A DNA stretch of 64,000 nt from Clostridia bacterium (GTDB taxonomy: Bacteria; CBDUZB01; JAGLHV01). Positions 4,291-52,327 of the stretch are shown here, one piece after another. The notes beneath the pieces are model-generated. The model saw nothing but the letters and a program-made list of their open reading frames with translations. It ran no database searches and had not been told where the DNA came from. The stretch covers positions 2,257 to 66,256 of the forward strand of contig DAOVVV010000010.1 of the NCBI GenBank assembly GCA_030637025.1, written 5' to 3'. Numbering within the stretch: position 1 is the stretch's first letter; every line of letters begins with the position of its first letter. Both the position numbers and the translations under genes were made by a program.

Positions 4291-4334
4291 TCTATGGACT
4301 ATCGACTGTGGACTATGGACTGTCTTTATTTTTT
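4291..4334. repeat. 44-bp unit tctatggactatcgactgtggactatggactgtctttatttttt, copy 1 of the 'tccatag' family
   Basis: Exact direct repeat of 4414-4457. Reverse-complement copies of the 34-bp core are at 36779, 41667, 41719, 41805 and 52157. Confidence 0.85.
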
Positions 4335-4413
4335 GTTTTGAATTTTGGATTTTGAATTTAGAATTTGTTTAGGATTTCGGATTTAGTATTTAGAATTTAT
4401 TTTTTGTTTGTTG

Positions 4414-4457
4414 TCTATGGACTATCGACTGTGGACTATGGACTGTCTTTATTTTTT
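4414..4457. repeat. 44-bp 'tccatag'-family unit, copy 2
   Basis: Identical to 4291-4334. Confidence 0.85.
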
Positions 4458-4507
4458 TAGTATTTCGAATTTAGTATTTATTTTAGATTTTTGTAAAATA
4501 CAATATT

Positions 4508-5730: not shown

Positions 5731-5850
5731 AGACTGTGTCATAACTCATATTTTCATGTGGTAGCCGCAGGCTTTAGCCTGCGTTATCGTCGGAGCTTTT
5801 CCGCAGGCTAAAGCCTGCGACTACCAAAAAAGGGATTATGACACAGTCTG
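5731..5850. repeat. Nested palindrome: outer IR agactgtgtcataa/ttatgacacagtct enclosing a 23-bp-stem hairpin gtagccgcaggctttagcctgcg…cgcaggctaaagcctgcgactac
   Basis: Read directly. Each arm also contains the internal palindrome gcaggc-ttta-gcctgc (cruciform-capable). Confidence 0.8.
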
Positions 5851-8919: not shown

Positions 8920-8997
8920 AAACCATTTGTAATTTTCTATCATTGCAGAATCAATTTTTTATGTGATTATGTAGTTATGTTGTTATGTAGCTATGTT

Positions 8998-9031
8998 GTA
9001 GCCGCAGGCTTTTAGCCTGCGTTATCATCGG
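8998..9031. repeat. gtagccgcaggcttttagcctgcgttatcatcgg repeat (family B)
   Basis: Matches 5761-5793 and 13376-13408. Preceded by a degenerate (atgt[ag]gttatgt) tract. Confidence 0.8.
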
Positions 9032-9090
9032 ATTTAAAATTTCGGATTTATTCTATATGTTTAGTATTTATTCTTTGTCTTTTTTATTTT

Positions 9091-10122: not shown

Positions 10123-10175
10123 TTTTTGTCTTTAGAATTTGCTGGAGCAGAGAGACGAAGCAATTTTAAACTGTT

Positions 10176-11138: not shown

Positions 11139-11342
11139 AAACAGTTGTCATTCCGCTCCGCCTGAGGCGCTTGTCCGCCTCTGGAGGAGATAAGGCGGAT
11201 ATAGAATTTAGATATTAGTATTTATTCTTTGCATTTGTTTCTGTCTATGAACTGTCTTTTATATTTATCTGTTGTCTTTGTCTATGGACTATTTCATTTA
11301 GAATTTTGCTGGAGCAAAGAGACGGAGCAATTTTAAAGTGTT

Positions 11343-13301: not shown

Positions 13302-13329
13302 ATCGTCATTCCGCTTGTGTTTTTATATT

Positions 13330-13356
13330 GTCATTCCGCACTTGATGCGGAATCCA
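13330..13356. repeat. Family A REP hairpin (gtcattccgcacttgatgcggaatcca)
   Basis: Same arm type as 4510 and 47757. A half-copy cgtcattccgcttgtg lies just upstream at 13304. Confidence 0.8.
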
Positions 13357-13375
13357 TTTTTTATGTGGTTATGTG

Positions 13376-13408
13376 GTAGCCGCAGGCTTTAGCCTGCGTT
13401 ATTGTCGG
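13376..13408. repeat. Family B repeat gtagccgcaggctttagcctgcgttattgtcgg
   Basis: Matches 5761 and 8998. Confidence 0.8.
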
Positions 13409-13484
13409 AGCAGAGCTTTGCAAATCTGCCTCAGGCATGATATTCTGCTTGTTCTTTAGTTTTTTATCTGTTGTCTTTTTTTTT

Positions 13485-13511
13485 GTCTTTCCTGCGAAAG
13501 CAGGAATCTAT
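13485..13511. repeat. Family A REP hairpin (gtctttcctgcgaaagcaggaatctat)
   Basis: Followed by the hairpin cctctctccttgtgggagagg at 13523-13545. Confidence 0.8.
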
Positions 13512-13572
13512 TCTTTTATTTTTCCTCTCTCCTTGTGGGAGAGGATAGGGTGAGGGGAAATCAGAAAACCCA

Positions 13573-16113
13573 ATGAAAACAAAAATATTCGACCAAATAA
13601 TAGAAGCACTAATTATTTCCCTAATCATCATAACCCCGTTTATTTTTGTTCCTTTACGGGAATATGCATCAACCATAACCAACATTACAGCTATAATACT
13701 CCTTATGGTCTGGATGACCAAAATGATTTATGCCGGAAAAATAACCATTGTTAAAACCCCGTTAAACTGGATAATTTTATCTTTCCTTTTTTTAGGAATC
13801 TTACAGGTCATAGGTTTTAACAAAAATTTATTATGTATTCCCTCCACTGTTTATCAATATCCCACCATACTAAAAATCTTAGATATTTTAAGTCTGGCAA
13901 TAATTTTTTGGGTAATAATAAATAATTTTACTAAAAAATCCCAGATAAACCGCATTTTGACCGTAATAATTTTTATGGGTTTTTCCTTAAGTTTTCTATG
14001 TATTTTGCAGCATTTAAGCAAAGGTGGTAATACTTTTTTAGGCATAAAACCTATGTATGCAAGGTCTAAGTTTTTTGGTCCCTACATCAACGGTAACCAT
14101 TTTGCTGCTTATTTAGGAATGATTGTTCCCCTATCTATAGGGATGGGATTAGCTGAAATAAAAAAAAGTAAAAAACTATTATTCTGGTTTGTTGGAATAA
14201 TTATGGCCTTAGGGCTTTTATTTTCTCTTTCCAACGGGGGAATAGTTTCCTTTATAGGAGCAATGATTTTTCTTTTTATTTTTTTAAACAGCAGAAAATC
14301 TACTCAAAAAGGAAAATGGATTATTGCTACTGTTCTTTGTCTGGTTATTATGGGTGTTATTTGGTTGGGGGTTAGCCCGGTAAAAGAAGAGGCATCTCAG
14401 CTCTTTCAATTTAATCAATCAGAATCATTTCAATCCCGCTGGCCCGTATGGAAAGCAAGCATAAAAATGCTAAAGGGAAACTGGTTGTTGGGTACAGGAC
14501 TGGGTACCTTTCGTTATGTCTTTCCAAAATTCAGGCCTCCCGGAATAAACAGAGAATTCAGATATGTCCATAACGATTACTTAGAAGTTCTTCTAAATAC
14601 AGGTATTGTAGGATTTCTTATACTGTTTTTAGGTGGATTTTATTATTTTCGTAATATCCTTAAAAAATTTTATAAAAGACGAAATCCTTATATCATAGCA
14701 ATATCCTGTGGTCCCATCACTGCCTTATTTTCAATGTTACTGCATAGTTTTGTTGACTTCAACTTACAAATAGGTCCCAATGTTTTACTTTTTATTATTA
14801 TTACCGCTATTACTATTCAAATATTAAAACTTAGAAATGAAAATAAAGATACTAAATCCCCATTGGATAACTTAATAGTAATAAAAGAAAGAACGACCAA
14901 TATTTTCCTTACTGGATGGCAAAAGCCACTTGTCGTAGGAATTACCGGGATTATTTCAGTATTTCTAATATTAACATTAATAAAACCCGCCAGAGCCACC
15001 CATTATTACAATTGCTATGTCATTGAGAGGGGAGCAAACAAGGAATCAATCTCCAACAAAACTGTCATTGCGAGGAGGGTAACCAACGAATCAATCTCCA
15101 ATGAAACTGTCATTGCGAGGAGATCCAACGACGAAGCAATCTCAAAGAACAACAAAAACGTCATCTCAAGCTTAGAAAAAGCGATAGAGTTAAACCCTTT
15201 AAATGCACTTTATCACTATAAACTTTCCTTAGAATATTTAAAGAAAAAACCACAAAACAAAAACATTAAAAATTCTTTAAAAGAAATGAAACAGGCAATA
15301 TATCTTAATCCAACAAATGCAAAGTATCACCTGACTCTTGCCATGCTCTACAGCCAATTGGCAAATTGGCCCATTACCCATCAGCCATCAAAGGACGATT
15401 ACATAAAGTTAGCTCATCAGGAATTCCAGCAAGCAATTTATTTAGCACCTAATACCCCCTATGGACATAAAAACTATGCTGATTGGCTTTTTACCCAACC
15501 TATCAAGGAGAACATCGAAAAAGGAATTGTTGAGTATAAAACGGCGATTACTTTAAAGCCGGAGTTGACTGCTAATGCTCTTGGTTTTTGTTATAACTTA
15601 ACCCATAACTATAATTTATTATCAGAAATAATACCGGATACAACCGATGGTCATTTCACTTTAAGAAAATACCTTATTAAAAAAGGATTAAAAGAAAAAG
15701 CTTTAGAGGAAGAAAATATTATATTAGATAAAATAACAGAAGAGCTTTCTTTTGCGGAAAATAAAAAAGAAGTTTACCAAAAAGCAGGACAAATTTATCA
15801 TGACTTAGGAAGATTTAACGAAGCAATAAAAGTGTATCACGAAGCTATGGACCTTGGTTTACAAAACAGTTGGTCTTATTATCGTCTTGCAGATAGCTAT
15901 AGAAAATTAGGTAAGATGGATTTAGCTATAAAATATTTTAAACTTTCATTAGAATTAGATGAAGAGAACTGCTGGGCATACTTTAGTTTAGCACGAACAT
16001 ATCAAGGTTTAGGCAAAAAAGCTGAGGCAGAATCAATGTGGCAGGAAATTATTAATTTAAAAAATGCAGATTCTGATGCTAAACGGATAGCTAAAAGGGA
16101 ATTAAAAAAATAA
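13573..16113 (+). CDS. O-antigen ligase/Wzy-family polytopic membrane protein fused to a C-terminal TPR domain
   Basis: About 11 TM helices carrying a Wzy_C-like loop (…SFIGAMIFLF…HNDYLEVLLNTGIVGF…). C-terminal ~330 aa has TPR-like repeats (…NPLNALYHYKLSLEYL…, …AIKVYHEAMDLG…, …YFKLSLELDEENCWAYFSLA…). A 45-bp in-frame tandem repeat lies in the linker. Confidence 0.75.
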   Translation: MKTKIFDQIIEALIISLIIITPFIFVPLREYASTITNITAIILLMVWMTKMIYAGKITIVKTPLNWIILSFLFLGILQVIGFNKNLLCIPSTVYQYPTILKILDILSLAIIFWVIINNFTKKSQINRILTVIIFMGFSLSFLCILQHLSKGGNTFLGIKPMYARSKFFGPYINGNHFAAYLGMIVPLSIGMGLAEIKKSKKLLFWFVGIIMALGLLFSLSNGGIVSFIGAMIFLFIFLNSRKSTQKGKWIIATVLCLVIMGVIWLGVSPVKEEASQLFQFNQSESFQSRWPVWKASIKMLKGNWLLGTGLGTFRYVFPKFRPPGINREFRYVHNDYLEVLLNTGIVGFLILFLGGFYYFRNILKKFYKRRNPYIIAISCGPITALFSMLLHSFVDFNLQIGPNVLLFIIITAITIQILKLRNENKDTKSPLDNLIVIKERTTNIFLTGWQKPLVVGITGIISVFLILTLIKPARATHYYNCYVIERGANKESISNKTVIARRVTNESISNETVIARRSNDEAISKNNKNVISSLEKAIELNPLNALYHYKLSLEYLKKKPQNKNIKNSLKEMKQAIYLNPTNAKYHLTLAMLYSQLANWPITHQPSKDDYIKLAHQEFQQAIYLAPNTPYGHKNYADWLFTQPIKENIEKGIVEYKTAITLKPELTANALGFCYNLTHNYNLLSEIIPDTTDGHFTLRKYLIKKGLKEKALEEENIILDKITEELSFAENKKEVYQKAGQIYHDLGRFNEAIKVYHEAMDLGLQNSWSYYRLADSYRKLGKMDLAIKYFKLSLELDEENCWAYFSLARTYQGLGKKAEAESMWQEIINLKNADSDAKRIAKRELKK
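15040..15147 (+). repeat. In-frame 45-bp (15-aa) tandem repeat (2.4 copies) within the Wzy-TPR gene linker. Contains ctgtcattgcgagg, reminiscent of the REP family A arm.
   Basis: aaggaatcaatctccaacaaaactgtcattgcgaggagggtaacc / aacgaatcaatctccaatgaaactgtcattgcgaggagatccaac / gacgaagcaatctca. Encodes KESISNKTVIARRVTN-ESISNETVIARRSND-EAIS. Confidence 0.8.
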
Positions 16114-22684: not shown

Positions 22685-24094
22685 ATGTATTTAAATGTTT
22701 TCAATAGAATAAGAAATACGAAACAAATCGTAGGTGTAGTTTTGTTTTCTATAGGGATAGGTATAACTTGTTTATCTATTGTTGAAAATTTAATTCCTAC
22801 CCTTGCTGTGGTGACAATACTTTTTAGCATTTGTCTGATTGTTATTTATCCAAGTATCCTTTTTGGAATTTATGCAAGTGGATTAATATTTATTATGATT
22901 ATGCAGGCAACTTATGAATTTAATATTTCACCAACAAACAAATGGGTTTTAATACCTTTTATGGGGATATTATTTTATTTATTAAAAGAAAAAAAAGTTT
23001 ATCTTTTCAGAGATGTAACTAAAATGGCAATATCACAAATAATTTTTGCAATATTATTATACATTGGGACTTTTTATGCCGTACACTCCTTTACAAGGAG
23101 CACCTATACGGTACTAATTGCCAGACGTTTTATTTATTTAAATCTTTTTCCTTTTCTGGGTTCTCTTTTTTTTTACAAGGATGATAAAAAGCTAAAGAAT
23201 ATATTTATGGCATTTGCAGTGAGTACAATAATTCTGGCATTAATTCCTTCTTTTTTTCTTGGTGAAAGCTTTTATGCAGATGAAATGCGTCTTACCACAC
23301 GATTGATGGGATTTGCGGGTTCTATTGGTGTGGGAAGAATAACTGGGTTTGCAGCTTTATTAATTGTTTGTTTTTTTGTTGTGATTAAGCGGAATTGGGG
23401 TTATAAACTTCTCCTTTCTCCATTGCTTGCAGTTTTTATTTTTCTTATGCTTCGATCGGGGACGAGAGGAGCACTTATAGCTTTTGTTGTTTCTTTGTCC
23501 ATATTGTTTACTATTGTTTTAAAAATAAAAAAAATATTTTTATTTAAACGAATATTTATACTATTTCTTGTCTTTTTGTTTTCTTTAGGAATTATATATG
23601 CTTTATGGAGCAATATTCCTGATGAACTTAGAGACCGATATCTAACTCTAAGTTCGGGTGGTACTTTTACAAATAATTATCGTATGATATTAATAAAGGA
23701 ATCCATTCAAATGTTCAAAAAATCTCCGATTATAGGATGTGGTACAGGTTCTTTTTATAATCTTGTTGGCACTTATCCACACAACATATTTTTAGAAATA
23801 GCGGGTTATTTAGGTCTTGCAGGGCTATCTATATTTATTTATTTTATTATTAGTACTTTTTTGCGTGCTTTTAAGAGTATTTCAATAAGTACTAATTCCA
23901 ATTCAGATCTTAAGTTTGCAATAACAGCAGCAACTATTGGATTTGTATTTTATCTTACTGAGGCGCAATTTAGTTTTAACTTAGACTTAAATGGAATAAT
24001 TTGGTTCTTTGCCGGATTCATCTGGGCTGCACATGCATGTATTATTTCCAAAGATTATACCTATAGAAAAGAAGAAAGATTTTATGTGGAATAA
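22685..24094 (+). CDS. Second O-antigen-ligase/Wzy-like polytopic membrane protein (putative polymerase)
   Basis: At least 10 TM helices. A periplasmic loop (…RSGTRGALIAFVVS…) is typical of the Wzy_C/O-antigen-ligase family. Confidence 0.6.
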   Translation: MYLNVFNRIRNTKQIVGVVLFSIGIGITCLSIVENLIPTLAVVTILFSICLIVIYPSILFGIYASGLIFIMIMQATYEFNISPTNKWVLIPFMGILFYLLKEKKVYLFRDVTKMAISQIIFAILLYIGTFYAVHSFTRSTYTVLIARRFIYLNLFPFLGSLFFYKDDKKLKNIFMAFAVSTIILALIPSFFLGESFYADEMRLTTRLMGFAGSIGVGRITGFAALLIVCFFVVIKRNWGYKLLLSPLLAVFIFLMLRSGTRGALIAFVVSLSILFTIVLKIKKIFLFKRIFILFLVFLFSLGIIYALWSNIPDELRDRYLTLSSGGTFTNNYRMILIKESIQMFKKSPIIGCGTGSFYNLVGTYPHNIFLEIAGYLGLAGLSIFIYFIISTFLRAFKSISISTNSNSDLKFAITAATIGFVFYLTEAQFSFNLDLNGIIWFFAGFIWAAHACIISKDYTYRKEERFYVE

Positions 24095-31409: not shown

Positions 31410-32179
31410 ATGAAATATATCAAAATGGCAGTAAAGAATGTGATTCCAAAGAAATATTATACTTTAGTGAGGAGTATTTATTCTTCCATTAAATATTTTG
31501 GTTTGCGTTTTAAATGTCCCTGTTGTGGAGGAAATTTTCGTAAATTTCTATCTTGTGGTATTAAATTACGAAGAAATGCTTTATGTCCTAGGTGTGGATC
31601 TTTAGAACGACATCGTCTTTTGTACTTATACCTCAAAGATAAAACCAATTTTTTTAGTGAACAGTTAAGAGTTTTTGATATTGCTCCCATGTATTTTTTT
31701 GCAAAAAAATGTAAGAAGTTGAAAAAACTTAATTATATTAGTGTTGATATTTTATCTCCAATAGCAATGGTTAAAATGGACATTAGAAATATTAGTTTCT
31801 CTAATAATCAATTTGATTGTATAATTTGTTACCATGTTCTTGAACATATTCTTGATGATGAAAAAGCAATGAGAGAATTGTATAGAATCTTAAAGCCGGG
31901 TGGTTGGGCAATATTGCAATCACCTATAGATTACAATCGCGAGAAGACTTTAGAGGATTCTAATATCGTGTCACCTACGAGCGAGAGCGTTTTTTTGGAC
32001 AAAAAAGCCATGTTAGGATATATGGGCAAGACTATAAAGATAGACTTGAAAAGGCAGGGTTTATTGTGAAACTTGATAACTATGTTAGAGAACTAGGAAA
32101 TAATATCATCAAAAAATATGGTTTGGATAAGAATGAGAGTATATATTATTGTACCAAATCAAAATCAAAAGGGAATTAG
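31410..32179 (+). pseudogene. Class I SAM-dependent methyltransferase (Methyltransf_11-like) with an N-terminal Zn-ribbon. Interrupted by a -1/+2 frameshift near 31995-32010 (a T7/A6 homopolymer tract).
   Basis: The ORF 31410..32069 ends prematurely. The alternative frame continues …VRIYGQDYKDRLEKAGFIVKL…SKSKGN* to the TAG at 32177-32179, which is the typical methyltransferase C-terminus. The shift maps to gtttttttggacaaaaaagcc. Confidence 0.5.
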
Positions 32180-32260
32180 GGGACGTAGTTTAAAGGTTAA
32201 AAGTATTGATATATGATTGAAAAAAGGATAAACGAAACGTATGCCAAGAGAAGCCAGAAT
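32174..32260 (+). repeat. Left copy of an ~87-bp direct repeat (RAYT promoter region plus the first 7 codons ATGCCAAGAGAAGCCAGAAT) lying upstream of the Fic gene
   Basis: About 90% identical to 33640-33726. Overlaps the 3' end of the frameshifted methyltransferase. Confidence 0.8.
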
Positions 32261-32432
32261 TTTGAGGGACGTTGTCAATTTGTCAAGTTGTGATAAAAAA
32301 AGAAGAGATTAATAAAAAAGAGAAGATGTAAAGGAGAGGGGAAGAAGTAACTAAAAATAAAGCAAAAGTAATAGAAAAGATAATTAGTTAATAAAGGATG
32401 CAACGTTCCCTATATTGCTTGGAGGTATTGAG

Positions 32433-33566
32433 ATGAATCTTAAAGATTTTAAAGCTGGTGTTTATAGACAACAATATCAATATAAAAGTTTTCTACCTGA
32501 AAAAATAAATCATCCATGGATTTGGGATGATCCTAAAATCAATGTCCTATTAGAAAAAGCCACTCAATCATTAGGTGAACTTAATGCATTTTCACTTATT
32601 GTTCCAGATGTAGATGTTTTTATTCAAATGCATATTGTCAAAGAAGCACAAGCGTCAAGCAAAATAGAAGGTACAAAAACCAACATAGATGAAGCAATAA
32701 TGGATAAGAATGTTATAGTTCCTGAAAAAAGGGATGACTGGCAAGAAGTAAAAAACTATATAGCGGCAATGAAATATGCTATTAGGAAACTTGAGAAGTT
32801 ACCATTAAGCAACAGATTATTAAAAGGGATGCATAAAATTTTATTGATGGGGGCTCGTGGCAAACACAAATTACCAGGAGAGTTTCGTAGAACCCAAAAC
32901 TGGTTTGGAGGTTCAAGCCCATCAGATGCTGTTTTTGTACCACCAACCCATGATGAAGTACCGGAGCTTATGGGCGACATTGAAAAGTTTTTGCACAACG
33001 AAGAGATAGAAGTTCCTCATCTTATCAAAATAGCAATTGGGCATTATCAATTCGAGACTGTTCATCCATTTAATGATGGAAATGGCCGTTGTGGCAGATT
33101 GATGATAACATTTTATTTAGTTGCAAATAAATTGCTTATTAAACCTTCATTATATTTATCTGATTTCTTTGAAAAAAACAGAATATCTTATTATGACGCG
33201 CTTTCTCGTGTACGAGAAAGTAACGATTTATCACACTGGATAAAATTTTTCTTAAATGGAATTACAGTGACTGCAGAAAAAGGGAAGAAAACATTTCAAG
33301 GAATATTGAAACTTAAAAATGATATCGACGCAAAAATAGTAAAACTCAACAGAAAAGCTGAAAGAGGAAGAGAATTTGTTCATTACCTTTATAGTAAACC
33401 AATAGTAAGTATTAATGATGTAGTTAATTTTTTTAAGATAACTAAAAAGTCTGCCATTTCTTTGGTTAGTGATTTTGAGAAATTAGGAATATTAAAGGAG
33501 TTAACTGGATATAAAAGAAATAAACTATTTGCTTTTAGTGATTATTTGGAATTGTTCTTAAAGTAA
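32433..33566 (+). CDS. Fic/DOC-family protein (class II Fic with an N-terminal inhibitory SxxxEG helix), predicted AMPylator
   Basis: Canonical active-site motif HPFNDGNGRCGRL (HxFx[D/E]GNGRxxR). N-terminal ASSKIEGT carries the [S/T]xxxE[G/N] inhibitory motif. C-terminal wHTH-like tail. Start chosen at 32433 (ggaggtattgag-ATG). Confidence 0.8.
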   Translation: MNLKDFKAGVYRQQYQYKSFLPEKINHPWIWDDPKINVLLEKATQSLGELNAFSLIVPDVDVFIQMHIVKEAQASSKIEGTKTNIDEAIMDKNVIVPEKRDDWQEVKNYIAAMKYAIRKLEKLPLSNRLLKGMHKILLMGARGKHKLPGEFRRTQNWFGGSSPSDAVFVPPTHDEVPELMGDIEKFLHNEEIEVPHLIKIAIGHYQFETVHPFNDGNGRCGRLMITFYLVANKLLIKPSLYLSDFFEKNRISYYDALSRVRESNDLSHWIKFFLNGITVTAEKGKKTFQGILKLKNDIDAKIVKLNRKAERGREFVHYLYSKPIVSINDVVNFFKITKKSAISLVSDFEKLGILKELTGYKRNKLFAFSDYLELFLK

Positions 33567-33639: not shown

Positions 33640-33726
33640 ATTAAGGGACGTAGTTTAAAAGTTTAAAGTATTGACATATGATTGAAAAAAGGATAAACTA
33701 AGCCTATGCCAAGAGAAGCCAGAATA
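33640..33726 (+). repeat. Right copy of the ~87-bp direct repeat: the authentic RAYT promoter and 5' coding end
   Basis: See 32174-32260. Confidence 0.8.
33671..33699 (+). promoter_or_regulatory. Putative RAYT promoter TTGACA-N17-TAAACT inside the right direct repeat
   Basis: ttgaca 33671-33676, taaact 33694-33699. The left-repeat copy is degenerate (ttgata…taaacg). Confidence 0.45.
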
Positions 33727-34695
33727 GATTATCCAGGAGCTCTGCACCATGTAATTGGAAGAGGGATAGAAAGAAGTAAAATATTTGAAGAGGATACGGA
33801 TAAGGAAAAGTTTTTACTTCGATTAAAGTTACTATTAGATAAGAGTGGTATGCAATGTTATGCATGGTGTATTATGGATAATCATTTTCATTTGTTACTT
33901 CTTACCGGGAAAACCCCGTTATCAGAATTCATGAGAAAATTACTAACGGGATATGCTGTTAATTATAATAAAGAGCACAAGAGAATTGGTCATTTATTTC
34001 AAAATAGATATAAATCAATATTATGTGATAGGGATGAATATTTGTTGCCGCTAATAAGATATATACATTTAAATCCGGTAAGAGTGAAAAAAGTGGAGAT
34101 AAATAAATTGCCTGGATATAAATGGACAAGTCATAAAGAAATGATAAATAAGCAGAAGAAAGAAGATAAATTAATAGAAGCAGAAGAAGTCTTGGGATAT
34201 TTTGGGAAGAGGAGAAAGGAATCAATAGCAGGATATGTAGAATATGTTAGAGAAGGAAAAGAATTAAGAGAAGATTATGGGGGAGGGGGATTAATAAGGA
34301 GGGCAGGAGGAATAAAAGAAATATTGAAGAGAAAAGCTGAGGAGCGAGAGCTGTATGATGAGCGGATATTAGGGTCGGGAGGATTTGTAGAAGAAACCTT
34401 GAGGAGGATGGAGCAAGAAGAAGATAAATATCCAAAGATCAGGAATATAGAGGAGCTAATAGGGAGAATCAGCAGGTATTATGGTATAGAAGTAGAAGAG
34501 ATAATAGAAACGAGGAAAAAGAAAGTAAGAGAAGCGAGGAGTGTATTAGTATATTTGGCGAGTAAATATTTAAAGGAAACAGGGGTAAAAATAGGAAAGT
34601 TGTTGGGAGTAGGAAAAGGAGCGATAAGTATAGCAAAAGAAAAAGGTAGAAATTTTTGTAAAGAGAAAGGGATTGAGGGGCACATATTACAATAA
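33706..34695 (+). mobile_element. REP-associated tyrosine transposase (RAYT; IS200-like Y1 HuH family) with a C-terminal DnaA-C-like HTH extension. Intact.
   Basis: HuH motif (DNHFHLLL), catalytic-Tyr region (FQNRYKS), and the RAYT-specific Y-I-H-L-N-P-V-R motif. No IS terminal inverted repeats. Surrounded by REP-like hairpins. Its own TTGACA-N17-TAAACT promoter is at 33671-33699. Confidence 0.75.
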
Positions 34696-35620: not shown

Positions 35621-36529
35621 ATGGAAATTTTGATTGTTTTTTTGGGTAGTTTGTTGGTTTCTTTGTTGATGATACCTTTGATAATGAAAATAGCAATAAA
35701 GAAAAGTTTTTTTGACCGGCCGGAAAATGTTTTAAAAATCCACAAAGAGCCCATCCCGCATTTGGGAGGGGTGGCTATTTTTATTAGTTTGGTGGTGGGG
35801 TTAATTACTGCCGGTTTTTTATTGGAATCATTTAAGTTTGCCGGAATTATAAGTATGGTTGTTGCTGCGGGTATAGTTTTTTTTATGGGTTTATGGGATG
35901 ATTTTAAAGAAGTTAAACCTGTTTATCGGTTTATAGCCCAGATAAGTGCAGGAATTATTCTGGTTTTGTCCGGATATAAAATAGGTTTTGTCAATTGTCC
36001 GGGTTTGAGCGGGATTTTGATTGTTCTTTATGTTTTAGGTTCGATAAACAGTATGAATTTACTGGATGGGATAGATGGATTAGCTGCCGGGGTGACCTTA
36101 ATTATTGGCTTGGGATTTTTAACGGCTTTTATTATGCAGGCTAATTTTTTTGGAATAGTTGTATCACTTATCTTTATTGGGGCGGTATGGGGTTTTTTAC
36201 CTTATAATTTTCCTAAAGCGTTTATATTTATGGGAGATAACGGAAGTACGCTTCTGGGGTTTATCTTAGCTTTTTTAGCCATAAATCTTGCTCAGTCCTC
36301 TGAGTTTAGCTGGTTTATTGCCTCGGTTGTGATTATGGGAGTGCCTATCATTGACACAGCGGTAGCAATTGCAAGGAGAATAATAAAGAAACGGCCGATT
36401 TTCCAGGGGGATCGCAGTCATATTTATGATTGGTTAATGGATAAAGGGATGAGTTCGAAAGAAACGGTATTTATTTTTTGCATAGCGGGGTTTGTTTTTC
36501 TTGTTATAGGATTGGTGGTGGGGGTATAA
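35621..36529 (+). CDS. Polyprenyl-phosphate HexNAc-1-phosphate transferase (WecA/MraY family, GT4-PNPT), the initiating phosphoglycosyl transferase
   Basis: Polytopic. Conserved PNPT motifs: …FMGLWDDFKEVKP…, NSMNLLDGIDGLAAG, FMGDNGSTLLGF. Start at 35621 (aggagtaaag-ATG) preferred over the track start at 35582. Confidence 0.8.
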   Translation: MEILIVFLGSLLVSLLMIPLIMKIAIKKSFFDRPENVLKIHKEPIPHLGGVAIFISLVVGLITAGFLLESFKFAGIISMVVAAGIVFFMGLWDDFKEVKPVYRFIAQISAGIILVLSGYKIGFVNCPGLSGILIVLYVLGSINSMNLLDGIDGLAAGVTLIIGLGFLTAFIMQANFFGIVVSLIFIGAVWGFLPYNFPKAFIFMGDNGSTLLGFILAFLAINLAQSSEFSWFIASVVIMGVPIIDTAVAIARRIIKKRPIFQGDRSHIYDWLMDKGMSSKETVFIFCIAGFVFLVIGLVVGV

Positions 36530-36778
36530 AGACGGTTAAAAGGCGGTTGAATTGGTTTAGATTGGTTTTATTGGTTAGAAAAGAAAAGATAAAAGACAGT
36601 TAAAGACAGTTAAAGACAGTTGGAAAAGACGGTTAAAAGGCGGTTGAATTGGTTTAGATTGGTTTAATCGGTTAGAAAAGAAAAGATAAAAGACAGTTAA
36701 AGACAGTTGGAAAAGACGGTTAAAAGACGGTTGAATTGGTTTAGATTGGTTTTATTGGTTGAAAAGATAAAAGAGACC
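36527..36778. repeat. About 87-bp tandem repeat, ~2.9 copies (aaagacggttaaaaggcggttgaattggtttagattggttttattggttagaaaagaaaagataaaagacagttaaagacagtt…)
   Basis: Read directly. Partial related copies at 50549-50622 and 52228-52268. Confidence 0.85.
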
Positions 36779-36896
36779 TAAAGACAGTCGATAGTCCATA
36801 GACTACAGATAAAGACAAAAGACAAAGACAAAGACAAAGACAAAGACAAAAGACAAAAGACAGAGACAGAGACAGAGACAACGACTAAAGACAAAG
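36779..36896. repeat. 'tccatag' unit (reverse orientation) followed by an (AAAGAC)n/(AGAGAC)n hexanucleotide tract of ~85 bp
   Basis: taaagacagtcgatagtccatagactacag, then aaagacaaaagacaaagacaaagacaaagacaaagacaaaagacaaaagacagagacagagacagagac. Confidence 0.85.
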
Positions 36897-36897
36897 A

Positions 36898-36924
36898 ATA
36901 GATTCCTGTTTGCACGGGAATGAC
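36898..36924. repeat. Family A REP hairpin in reverse orientation (atagattcctgtttgcacgggaatgac)
   Basis: Reverse complement of the 9091 type. Confidence 0.8.
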
Positions 36925-41054: not shown

Positions 41055-41693
41055 ATGAATCAAAAAAATGTTTTCGCAGGGAAGAGAAAGTATTATTTCA
41101 TTAATGAGTATTTTCAGATAAAAGACATATTGAAAGTTTGTTTTTTGGTAGTTGTCGGATGTGTTATTTTTGCTGCAATTATATATCTTTTTTCAAAGCA
41201 GACGATGACTACTTCTTTTGAAAATTCCCGTTTAGTGTTGAAAAGTACGGCGGATTTTATTTTTCCTGCTCTTGTTTCCAGTATGATTGTGGTAATTACG
41301 GTGTTAAGTATTATTTGCCTTATAGTAGTTTTATTTGCTTCTCAAAATATAATAAGGCCGATGTGTATTTTAGCCGGGAAGGTCAAGGATATGGGTGAAG
41401 GGGACCTTACTTTAACTATTAATTCAACGGCTCAGGTTGAAATGGGAGAAGTGGTTGGAAATTTTAATGAAATGCTTGAAAAACTTAAAAGCCGTATATT
41501 GCAAATAAAAGGAATAAACGGTGAATTAGGAGAAAACATTGAAAAATTAAGGAAAATACGCGGAACCTGTTCACAAGAAGAAGCTAAATTAATAGAAGAG
41601 TTATTGAAAAAACAAGAAGAAATAAGTGAGAGGCTTGCTTATTTTAAAACGGAGAGTAAAGACAAAAGACAGTCCATAGTCCACAGTCAATAG
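41055..41693 (+). CDS. Small membrane protein with two TM helices and a HAMP domain; no output domain
   Basis: TM1 (VCFLVVVGCVIFAAIIYLF) and TM2 (FIFPALVSSMIVVITVLSIICLIVVLFA), followed by a HAMP-like IIRPMCILAGKVKDMGEGDLTLTI…FNEMLEKLK. The last 12 codons and the stop lie inside the intergenic repeat mosaic. Confidence 0.55.
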   Translation: MNQKNVFAGKRKYYFINEYFQIKDILKVCFLVVVGCVIFAAIIYLFSKQTMTTSFENSRLVLKSTADFIFPALVSSMIVVITVLSIICLIVVLFASQNIIRPMCILAGKVKDMGEGDLTLTINSTAQVEMGEVVGNFNEMLEKLKSRILQIKGINGELGENIEKLRKIRGTCSQEEAKLIEELLKKQEEISERLAYFKTESKDKRQSIVHSQ

Positions 41694-42200
41694 TCCATAG
41701 TCCATAGATAAAGAATAAAGACAGTCCATAGTCCACAGTCAATAGTCCATAGACAAAGACAAAGACAAAGACAAAGAATAAAGAATAAAGAATAAAGAAT
41801 AAAGACAGTCTATAGTCGATAGTCGATAGTCCATAGACAAAGAATAAAGATAGTCCATAGATAAAGACTAAAGAATAAATACTAAATTCAAAATACAAAA
41901 TTCTAAACAAAGACAAAGAATAAAAATAAATACTAAATAACAACTTTAAACAAAGCAAGCTTTGCAACTACTGGATTCCGCATCATCCGCCTCAGGCGGA
42001 GCGGAATGACAACATAAAAACATAAATTCAAAACAAAGACAAAGACAAAAGATAAAGAGTAAAAACAGTCCATAGAACAGAAACAAATGCAAAGAATAAA
42101 TCCCCCTAACCCCCTTTTCCAAAGGGGGAAACTCAATGAGGGCTGTTGCTTTGCTCCAGCAAAATAAAGAGAAGACGGTAAAGATAGTCCATAGACAGAA
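41660..42200. repeat. About 540-bp mosaic repeat block: 3 'tccatag' units, (AAAGAC)4, (ATAAAGA)4, an aaatactaaattc module, a ccgcctcaggcgg/ggaatgac hairpin, the poly-C/G hairpin (42098-42131) and a ttgctccagcaa module
   Basis: All sub-modules have copies elsewhere in the window. The block overlaps the last codons of the HAMP gene. Confidence 0.85.
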
Positions 42201-50548: not shown

Positions 50549-50694
50549 AAAAAGACAGTTGGAAAAGACAGTTAAAAGACAGTTAAATTGGTTGAATTGG
50601 TTTTATTAGTTTAGATTGGTTCAAAGACAAAAGACAAAAGACAAAGATAAAGACAATCTTTTCCCTCTTTGAAAAAGGGGGTTAGGGGGATTTA
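50549..50694. repeat. Mosaic: a partial 87-bp-family copy, an (AAAGAC)n tract (50623-50656), and the poly-C/G terminator-like hairpin (50658-50694)
   Basis: Read directly. Lies after yjbQ. Confidence 0.8.
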
Positions 50695-52156: not shown

Positions 52157-52275
52157 ACAGTCCATAGTCCACAGTCGATAGTCCATAGACAAAGACAAAG
52201 AATAAATACTAAATTCGAAAGTCAAATAAAAGACAGTTTAATTGGTTGAATTGGTTTAGATTGGTTCAAAGACAA
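52157..52275. repeat. Mosaic: 'tccatag' unit, (AAAGAC)2, an aaatactaaattc module, and a partial 87-bp-family copy
   Basis: Begins 5 bp after the nadK stop. Confidence 0.8.
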
Positions 52276-52327
52276 AAGATAAAGGTAAAGATAAAAAATT
52301 TAAGATTTAAAATTTGGGAGTTAAAAA

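Follow-up and report, generated by a model that had tools for sequence, protein, structure and literature searches.

An array of dispersed hairpin-repeat DNA read in frame in the linker of a conserved Wzy_C-TPR membrane protein

Membrane enzymes in which a Wzy_C core is combined with a C-terminal tetratricopeptide repeat (TPR) region are already known, the O-oligosaccharyltransferases WsfB and PglL being examples (PMC2943079). Among the short palindromic repeats of bacteria, the Neisseria Transformation Sequence (NTS), CGTCATTCCCGCGMAVGCGGGAATCYRG, which encompasses dRS3, is cut as single-stranded DNA (ssDNA) by SsnA, a single-domain GIY-YIG nuclease of 94 amino acids; the two are arranged as NTS-ssnA-NTS, a generalised Ssn-related motif (SRM) occurs in many phyla, and the NTS is rarely located inside genes (2% in N. 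meningitidis) (PMC11893778). The Rickettsia palindromic elements (RPEs) are selfish palindromic repeats which are found in frame in genes (Ogata et al. 2000/2002, reviewed in PMC10969869). In this work a 64,000-nucleotide stretch of a Clostridia bacterium genome (GCA_030637025.1, contig DAOVVV010000010.1, positions 2,257 to 66,256; referred to as the window) was analysed, in which a Wzy_C-TPR gene at 13573-16113 contains, in the linker between its membrane and TPR domains, an in-frame array of 45-bp units that belong to a dispersed family of hairpin elements. We estimate a probability of roughly 80% for the following reading: in a conserved Wzy_C-TPR enzyme, a lineage-specific hairpin element came to lie in frame in the linker, was duplicated to three units and has decayed.

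The array (Table 1) is translated as VIERGANKESISNKT, VIARRVTNESISNET and VIARRSNDEAISKNN. It was reported by Tandem Repeats Finder (TRF) at 15018-15143 with a period of 45, 2.8 copies, 81% matches and a score of 168. The original prediction had placed an in-frame 45-bp repeat of 2.4 copies at 15040-15147; the repeat is real, but it consists of three units and covers a longer segment. Each unit is composed of a decayed hairpin element of the form GTCATTGCGAGGAG-N-GACGAAGCAATCT and a 9-nt spacer and reads cTGTCAT...AATCTC, the identity between units being 73-82%. Unit 3, with the sequence GTCATTGCGAGGAG-ATCCAAC-GACGAAGCAATCT, matches the ends of the element at 30/30 nt and unit 2 at 28/30. In the AT-rich window (32.6% GC) the 14-mer ctgtcattgcgagg is confined to the array, the best match elsewhere having three mismatches, which is the level of chance. 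Two derived substitutions (unit positions 23 and 29) are common to units 1 and 2 when these are compared with unit 3 and the family consensus, which demonstrates at least one 45-bp duplication in place.

The membership of the units in a dispersed family (hereafter the ORF-unit family, after the open reading frame, ORF) is apparent from comparison with other genomes. Exact matches to GTCATTGCGAGGAG-N(3-12)-GACGAAGCAATCT are present at no fewer than 120 loci in 185,579 species genomes, where by our own arithmetic about 7e-4 would be expected by chance. The element is 31-39 nt long and can also be written GTCATTGCGAG..GAAGCAATC, with the family core GCGAGGAG; its inner region is purine-rich (GAGGAG/GACGAA) and its variable middle consists of covarying, compensatory stems, such as CGAAGC, CCCGAAGGGC, TCCCGGAGGGAC and CGCGCAGCGC. 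Among the matches listed there are Chloroflexota, Bacteroidota (Pedobacter, Flavobacterium), Patescibacteria, Omnitrophota, Planctomycetota, Alpha-, Gamma- and Deltaproteobacteria, a Rickettsiales endosymbiont and others. With nhmmer, a profile of 133 copies from other genomes gave E-values of 8.7e-12 for unit 3 and 7.7e-8 for unit 2, unit 1 being matched only in part; the consensus bases that flank the searched pattern (ct-GTCATT, AATCT-c) coincide with those of the units. These matches speak strongly against the idea that the repeat is a native structural motif maintained by selection, with a merely coincidental likeness to dispersed DNA. Its hydrophilic peptide would make a plausible stalk, and in the AlphaFold2 (AF2) model the helix of the 13th transmembrane segment (TM13) runs on into the first units, but none of the homologues has the repeat, and its predicted local distance difference test (pLDDT) score is about 50; we give this explanation next to no weight.

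The array is restricted to the lineage of the window. The same protein is deposited as P0001, and the sister lineage is represented by GCA_023132075.1 (L001, with the partial orthologue P0002) and GCA_030630345.1 (L124, with the full-length orthologue P0051 of 803 aa), at 83-84% protein identity. DNA identity to the sister amounts to 94% in the membrane domain and 82.5% in the TPR domain, and about 129 extra nucleotides (about 43 codons) are found in the window exactly at the array. Four outgroup homologues (P0003-P0006, 31-33% identity, 780-809 aa) have 0-4 residues in the corresponding alignment columns. Since the array is absent from the sister and from the outgroups, a gain in the window lineage is the parsimonious reading, and we infer from these alignments that it was inserted and not lost. 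The opposite history, in which the common ancestor of both lineages had the array and the sister lost it by a clean deletion, might draw on the fact that direct repeats favour precise deletion and that the close lineages available are two in number. However, the outgroups do not have the array, and at this site the sister can be aligned to the native codons 3' of the array (SNKNIENLEKA against KNNKNVISSLEKA) and shows no remnant of it, which makes such a loss improbable.

The gene together with its array is identical to that of the window in two independent metagenome assemblies (L002 and L003), so an assembly artefact is ruled out. The same identity bears on another suggestion of the original prediction, a linker of variable length, in which slippage or recombination would change the number of units between strains and so adjust how far the TPR domain stands from the membrane. 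In-frame tandem units of 15 codons within a linker would suit such a contingency device, all the more as at least one duplication took place in situ and the element forms arrays with different numbers of copies in other genomes. Nevertheless, variation in copy number was not seen among the three assemblies (window, L002, L003), a weak test, as these may be one population; units as diverged as these are a poor substrate for slippage, which argues against an active process; the sister has zero units and not one or two; and further relatives of the protein were found neither in the protein database nor, beyond the known ones, in the metagenomes of the Joint Genome Institute (JGI). A length-variable linker is improbable, as is an ancestral array lost from the sister, and the insertion of an element that was later duplicated and decayed accounts better for what is seen.

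The position of the array was also suggested to mark the junction of once separate Wzy and TPR genes. It does lie between the two domains, but directly after TM13 (aa 452-470), a helix that already belongs to the fused arrangement, and therefore in a juxtamembrane linker and not at a junction of formerly separate genes. The closest homologues (P0002-P0006, 31-83% identity) are all Wzy_C+TPR fusions in which TM13 is present and the linker is short and non-repetitive; this holds for the sister orthologue as well as for those at 31-33% identity, and about a dozen further matches are likewise fused. From these alignments the fusion is old and the repeat later, and a domain-fusion scar has to be regarded as exceedingly unlikely. 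The original prediction thus meets a divided result: the orthologues are all fused through non-repetitive linkers, which speaks against a fusion scar, and the 45-mer aligns significantly to dispersed repeats, which speaks for a REP-like origin.

Several observations weigh against the insertion of a family element into the gene of a conserved enzyme. The profile score of unit 3 is circular, since the search pattern came from this unit, and the independent evidence is limited to the matches elsewhere, the agreement of the flanks and unit 2. A clear second copy of the family was not found in the 64-kb window, the best candidate being borderline at E 0.052. Folding of the three units of the ORF gave no hairpin, and even the canonical copies of the family are weak Watson-Crick hairpins (-1.6 to -5.7 kcal/mol), yet their inner stems covary. 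The published degenerate SRM motif has 0 matches in the window on either strand, the ORF-unit family being a misfit to it, and a GIY-YIG gene was not found in the window by a regular-expression scan or by a Pfam scan of small ORFs adjacent to elements. The decision between insertion and loss is based on two close lineages and on distant outgroups. Finally, the activity of the enzyme is possibly altered, because in the S-R-G-G motif the column of aa 221 (14233-14235) is occupied by arginine in 46/49 homologues and by asparagine in the window protein and the sister orthologue; judged from the alignment, N221 could affect catalysis, substrate handling or activity.

In the other genomes the element is depleted from coding frames: among the loci listed, 40% of the elements are in frames of at least 150 codons compared with 83% of random positions. 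Adjacent copies among the same loci form 64 convergent pairs and 17 direct tandem pairs with short spacers, and direct tandem arrays occur in L075 (six copies, period 53), L046 and L092. The element is free of stop codons in five of its six reading frames, and in-frame copies were detected in real genes, namely in PolA of L113 (inter-domain linker), in a PfkB kinase of an Omnitrophica genome (L021), in a GT2 protein of a Chloroflexi genome (L094) and in the ScpB tail of L107, where the reading frame is the same as in the window (VIARSDSDEAILN). The LeuRS ORF of Parcubacteria GW2011_GWB1_42_6 (L102, LCEC01000010.1) carries at least four in-frame hairpin-repeat segments (CHCEESEGRRSNP, VIASSERAKQS, EIASSQAPRNDD and VIPAQAGIQ...LDPRFHGDD), one of them inside the editing domain, with Pfam domains intact on both sides. 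The GCGAGGAG family was not found described in literature searches with its DNA core and with the peptides derived from it, and in the window Rfam at its gathering thresholds gave tRNA only, none of the repeats being a curated RNA family.

Five small ORFs near copies of the element are homologous to one another, and all are within 108 nt of an element. Four of them (L020, 231-596; L064; L078; L108) are clear single-domain GIY-YIG proteins (PF01541) of about 95-100 aa, and the fifth (L083) is a weaker homologue which was not confirmed by Pfam. At several of these ORFs the layout is element > gene < element, with the GTCATTGCGAGGAG...GCAATCT form of the element. The GIY-YIG ORFs belong to no named NCBIfam family and gave a weak UPF0213 match only in the PDB. 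By analogy with the NTS, the element may be linked to GIY-YIG nucleases of the Ssn type.

According to the proposed history, one short hairpin element, GTCATTGCGAGGAG-(stem-loop)-GACGAAGCAATCT, would have landed in frame just after TM13 in the window lineage only, where the periplasmic juxtamembrane linker would be a flexible and tolerant site. The insertion could be tolerated because five of the six frames of the element are stop-free and because the linker is flexible at this site. The element would then have been duplicated locally, together with its 9-nt spacer, to give three 45-bp units, their hairpins would have decayed until the units no longer folded, and the insert would persist as about 43 residues of low-complexity stalk, probably helical or flexible, by which the TPR domain is set apart from the membrane. 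For the enzyme the insert is presumably neutral or merely tolerated. The short sequence GTCATCTCAAG immediately after the array may be what is left of a fourth unit that has collapsed, or else the former target site.

In comparison with the described repeats, the HGTCWY head and RNCYNB tail that surround the palindromic core of the NTS/SRM class are present both in the units (cTGTCAT...AATCTC) and in another repeat of the window, family A (TGTCATTCCTGCGAAAGCAGGAATCTAT). The ORF-unit family resembles this class in its oriented (T/C)GTCAT 5' end, its AATC(T/C) 3' end and its variable, covarying inner stem, and its convergent pairs flanking GIY-YIG genes of about 95 aa in other genomes mirror the NTS-ssnA-NTS arrangement. 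In contrast to the NTS, its interior is purine-rich (GAGGAG/GACGAA) and does not form a perfect stem, and an Ssn gene was not found in the window. Judged from these likenesses, the ORF-unit family appears to work like the NTS/SRM class and is probably related to it. Family A is nearer to the NTS, since it matches the 28-nt NTS consensus at 24/28 positions with two internal differences that form a compensatory change of a C:G to a T:A pair; solely by this T:A pair does it miss the SRM motif, whereas the ORF-unit family misses it by a different core.

The element has in common with the RPEs that it is a dispersed, mostly intergenic palindromic family with some in-frame copies in functional genes, and that the added peptide stands at a structurally tolerant site, is absent from the orthologues and leaves the ORF of the window gene intact. 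Homology to the described RPE families is unlikely, because the element is about 33 nt long and the RPEs are about 100-150 bp; the sequences are presumably unrelated, and a tandem array of three, a distribution over many phyla instead of one genus, and the GIY-YIG association also set it apart. With the repetitive extragenic palindromes (REPs), their mosaic arrays (bacterial interspersed mosaic elements, BIMEs) and the REP-associated tyrosine transposases (RAYTs, IS200/IS605-like), the elements share the character of short extragenic palindromes in mosaic intergenic arrays. However, the window elements compared here do not have a REP head of the GTAG type, and the gene associated with the element elsewhere encodes a GIY-YIG protein. 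The window ORFs that were scanned included no Y1 transposase, and no transposase was detected in the Pfam scan of small ORFs adjoining the elements of the window. The far-reaching combination of claims, that the element constitutes a so far undescribed sister class to the Ssn/NTS hairpin repeats throughout the bacteria, is spread by or along with small GIY-YIG nucleases, is recurrently used as a protein linker and was here expanded in place to lengthen a periplasmic stalk with functional consequences, is improbable when taken as a whole.

The window contains further repeats of this kind. Family A, CTGTCATTCCTGCGAAAGCAGG, has 8 matches to a 22-mer within three mismatches (0 expected) and about 10 copies in all; it is an NTS-like perfect hairpin, the canonical copy folding at -7.8 kcal/mol (z -6.5). 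With the units in the ORF it shares the frame TGTCATT...AATCT only. The REP-like resemblance that had been noticed in the linker repeat is thus justified in so far as the repeat comes from dispersed hairpin DNA, but the source is the GTCATTGCGAGGAG...GACGAAGCAATCT family and not family A. Apart from the ORF copies there are 17 hairpins of the GTCATT type in the window, and all of them are intergenic though 84% of the window is coding, which makes the copies in the ORF exceptional.

The protein seems to have received repeat DNA at a second place as well. In the sister, the TM12-TM13 loop (L001:1035-1100; aa ~427-445 of P0051 in L124) contains an in-frame dispersed element, CCTCTCCCCTTGAGGGAGAGGGTAGGGTGAGGGG, read as SPLEGEGRVRG, which is of the same family as the family C element of the window at 13524-13557. 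The corresponding loop of the window protein has nearly the same length and retains TCCCC.TTGG only; on this resemblance it may be a decayed copy of family C. Taken together, the array and the loop insert of the sister indicate at least two occasions on which repeat DNA was accommodated in the linker region of this protein. Turnover of such elements must be fast, since the upstream spacers of the two lineages are not homologous: the 271-nt spacer between wzc and the Wzy_C-TPR gene (13302-13572) contains at least four different elements and is not alignable with L124:2233-2435, which has a separate element set, while the genes on either side share about 94% identity. A third hairpin family, GTAGCCGCAGGCTTTAGCCTGCGTTAT, was also observed, with three intergenic copies (5756-5796, 8994-9034 and 13371-13411) and a GTAG start as in classical REPs.

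As a separate observation, intergenic tandem repeats are located at 4292-4480, 36528-36900, 41657-41940, 50550-50656 and 52157-52326. They include AGTCCAT/CTATGGA heptamers, AAAGACAGTT decamers, AGACAA hexamers and an 87-nt unit present twice at 95% identity, and some of them are found in the sister spacer (L124) too. In addition, a segment of 86 nt occurs twice at 92% identity (32175-32260 and 33640-33725), ahead of and extending into the starts of two neighbouring ORFs (32415-33566 and 33706-34695), which suggests duplicated 5' regions or leaders.

The protein of 846 aa, whose Wzy_C and TPR parts the original prediction had described, is an ordinary member of the known Wzy_C-TPR architecture. 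Pfam identified Wzy_C (PF04932) at aa 207-352 with 79.3 bits against a cutoff of 31.7 (E 3.4e-22) and TPR_11, TPR_8, TPR_12, TPR_2 and others above their cutoffs at aa ~524-845; NCBIfam gave sub-threshold hits only, to the IctB family, PEP_O_lig_1 and TPR proteins. Hydropathy analysis indicated 13 hydrophobic helices, with loops that obey the positive-inside rule. In the 70-aa loop aa 269-338, R289 is invariant (49/49 homologues) and H333 is conserved (44/49). Searches of the PDB with the single sequences of both Wzy_C proteins of the locus were empty, and WaaL (7tpg) was reached, at E 5e-21, by the profile of 49 homologues only. By analogy with WaaL the large loop would be periplasmic and the loops aa 358-371 and 419-451, both rich in lysine and arginine, cytoplasmic, and TM13 would carry the C-terminal TPR domain of about 320 aa to the periplasmic side. 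The AF2 model has an overall pLDDT of 88.6 and a predicted template modelling (pTM) score of 0.87, with the helices of aa 511-845 above 90 and arranged in helical hairpins; confidence is low at aa 424-438 in the TM12-TM13 loop (pLDDT below 50) and at aa ~491-520 in the repeat region (49-67). When the whole model was submitted to Foldseek, TPR superhelices dominated the matches, and nothing was added on the membrane domain.

WsfB of Paenibacillus alvei, PglL of Neisseria and WaaL are similar to the window protein in the Wzy_C core with Arg and His in the periplasmic loop, and the first two also in the TPR region that follows this core and in being encoded in a surface-glycan locus. The window protein differs in its long TPR domain (about 320 aa), in the extra TM helix before it and in the replacement of the SRGG arginine by N, and the identity is too low for a pairwise match. 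The public gene call (P0001, 796 aa) begins at Met51, at 13723 instead of 13573, which is too late: alignments with orthologues and distant homologues reach back to the upstream ATG, by which the first TM helix is gained, and the start at 13573 is supported because P0051 and P0050 begin with MKTKIFDQ as the window ORF does.

The gene is located among those of a Wza-like protein (9290), CpsB (10266), a Wzc-type tyrosine kinase (11439) and a Wzx flippase (16113), followed in the locus by GT2, GT4 and GT9 glycosyltransferases and the second Wzy_C protein; TonB, BamD-like and porin genes are nearby. The locus is one for a surface polysaccharide of the Wzx/Wzy type, and the host is a diderm, as follows from the presence of the Wza, TonB, BamD-like and porin genes. 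The second, unfused Wzy_C protein, which the original prediction had recognised, has no pairwise similarity to the first (BLASTP E 3.9), so the two are not recent duplicates or paralogues and probably have different roles. Whether the TPR-fused protein is a ligase or an O-oligosaccharyltransferase-type enzyme and the unfused one the polymerase is a guess with even odds.

Table 1. Positions in the window of the features of the Wzy_C-TPR gene and of the repeats around it
Feature	Position	Strand	Basis
Weak ORF-unit-family match GGAGCAGAGAGACGAAGCAATTTT, intergenic; twin at ~11311-11334	10144..10167	+	nhmmer E 0.052, repeat D8
Hairpin element A' TGTCATTCCGCACTTGATGCGGAATCC, intergenic	13324..13357	+	repeat family D15; canonical copy -8.2 kcal/mol, z -3.9
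Family-A hairpin, intergenic, ~63 nt upstream of the start codon	13483..13510	+	repeat search; fold
Family C element CCTCTCTCCTTGTGGGAGAGGATAGGGTGAGGGG, intergenic	13524..13557	+	31/34 identity with the in-ORF copy of L001, 0 expected by chance
Wzy_C (O-antigen-ligase-like, GT-C) membrane protein with C-terminal TPR domain	13573..16113	+	ORF, Pfam, WaaL profile match, AF2
Wzy_C core, aa 207-352, with large loop aa 269-338	14191..14628	+	Pfam; loop by hydropathy
Lysine/arginine-rich TM12-TM13 loop, aa 419-451, 7 K+R, putatively cytoplasmic	14827..14925	+	hydropathy
TM13, extra helix, aa 452-470	14926..14982	+	hydropathy 2.55; AF2 helix 450-503
In-frame array of three 45-bp (15-codon) units starting at 15018, 15063 and 15108	15018..15152	+	TRF, repeat finder
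TPR domain, aa ~524-846, ~8 helical hairpins, putatively periplasmic	15142..16110	+	Pfam, NCBIfam, AF2, Foldseek
GTCATCTCAAG, right after the array, with both unit-3 ends (GTCAT...CTCAAAG) and without the core	15160..15170	+	read from the sequence
Second, unfused Wzy_C protein	22685..24094	+	Pfam Wzy_C E 3.9e-14

For the protein itself little changes; it is a typical Wzy_C-TPR enzyme encoded among surface-polysaccharide genes, and its fusion is old. On the far-reaching and improbable reading given above, the open frames of the element would make it a ready-made linker, even in essential enzymes of reduced genomes, as in the LeuRS of Parcubacteria and in the linker of PolA. If the proposed origin of the array is true, hairpin repeats similar to the NTS, which was recently tied to ssDNA-specific GIY-YIG nucleases, would be found translated inside genes, and the phenomenon of selfish DNA in proteins known from Rickettsia would be extended to a far shorter element of many phyla. 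For annotators, peptides like VIARS..ATKQS, SLRGA..RRSNL, CHCEE..DEAIS and ..LLAMT would mark DNA derived from the element, and such peptides should not be taken for conserved protein motifs or for domain-fusion junctions. It would be a neat, if not revolutionary, case of selfish DNA turned into protein sequence.

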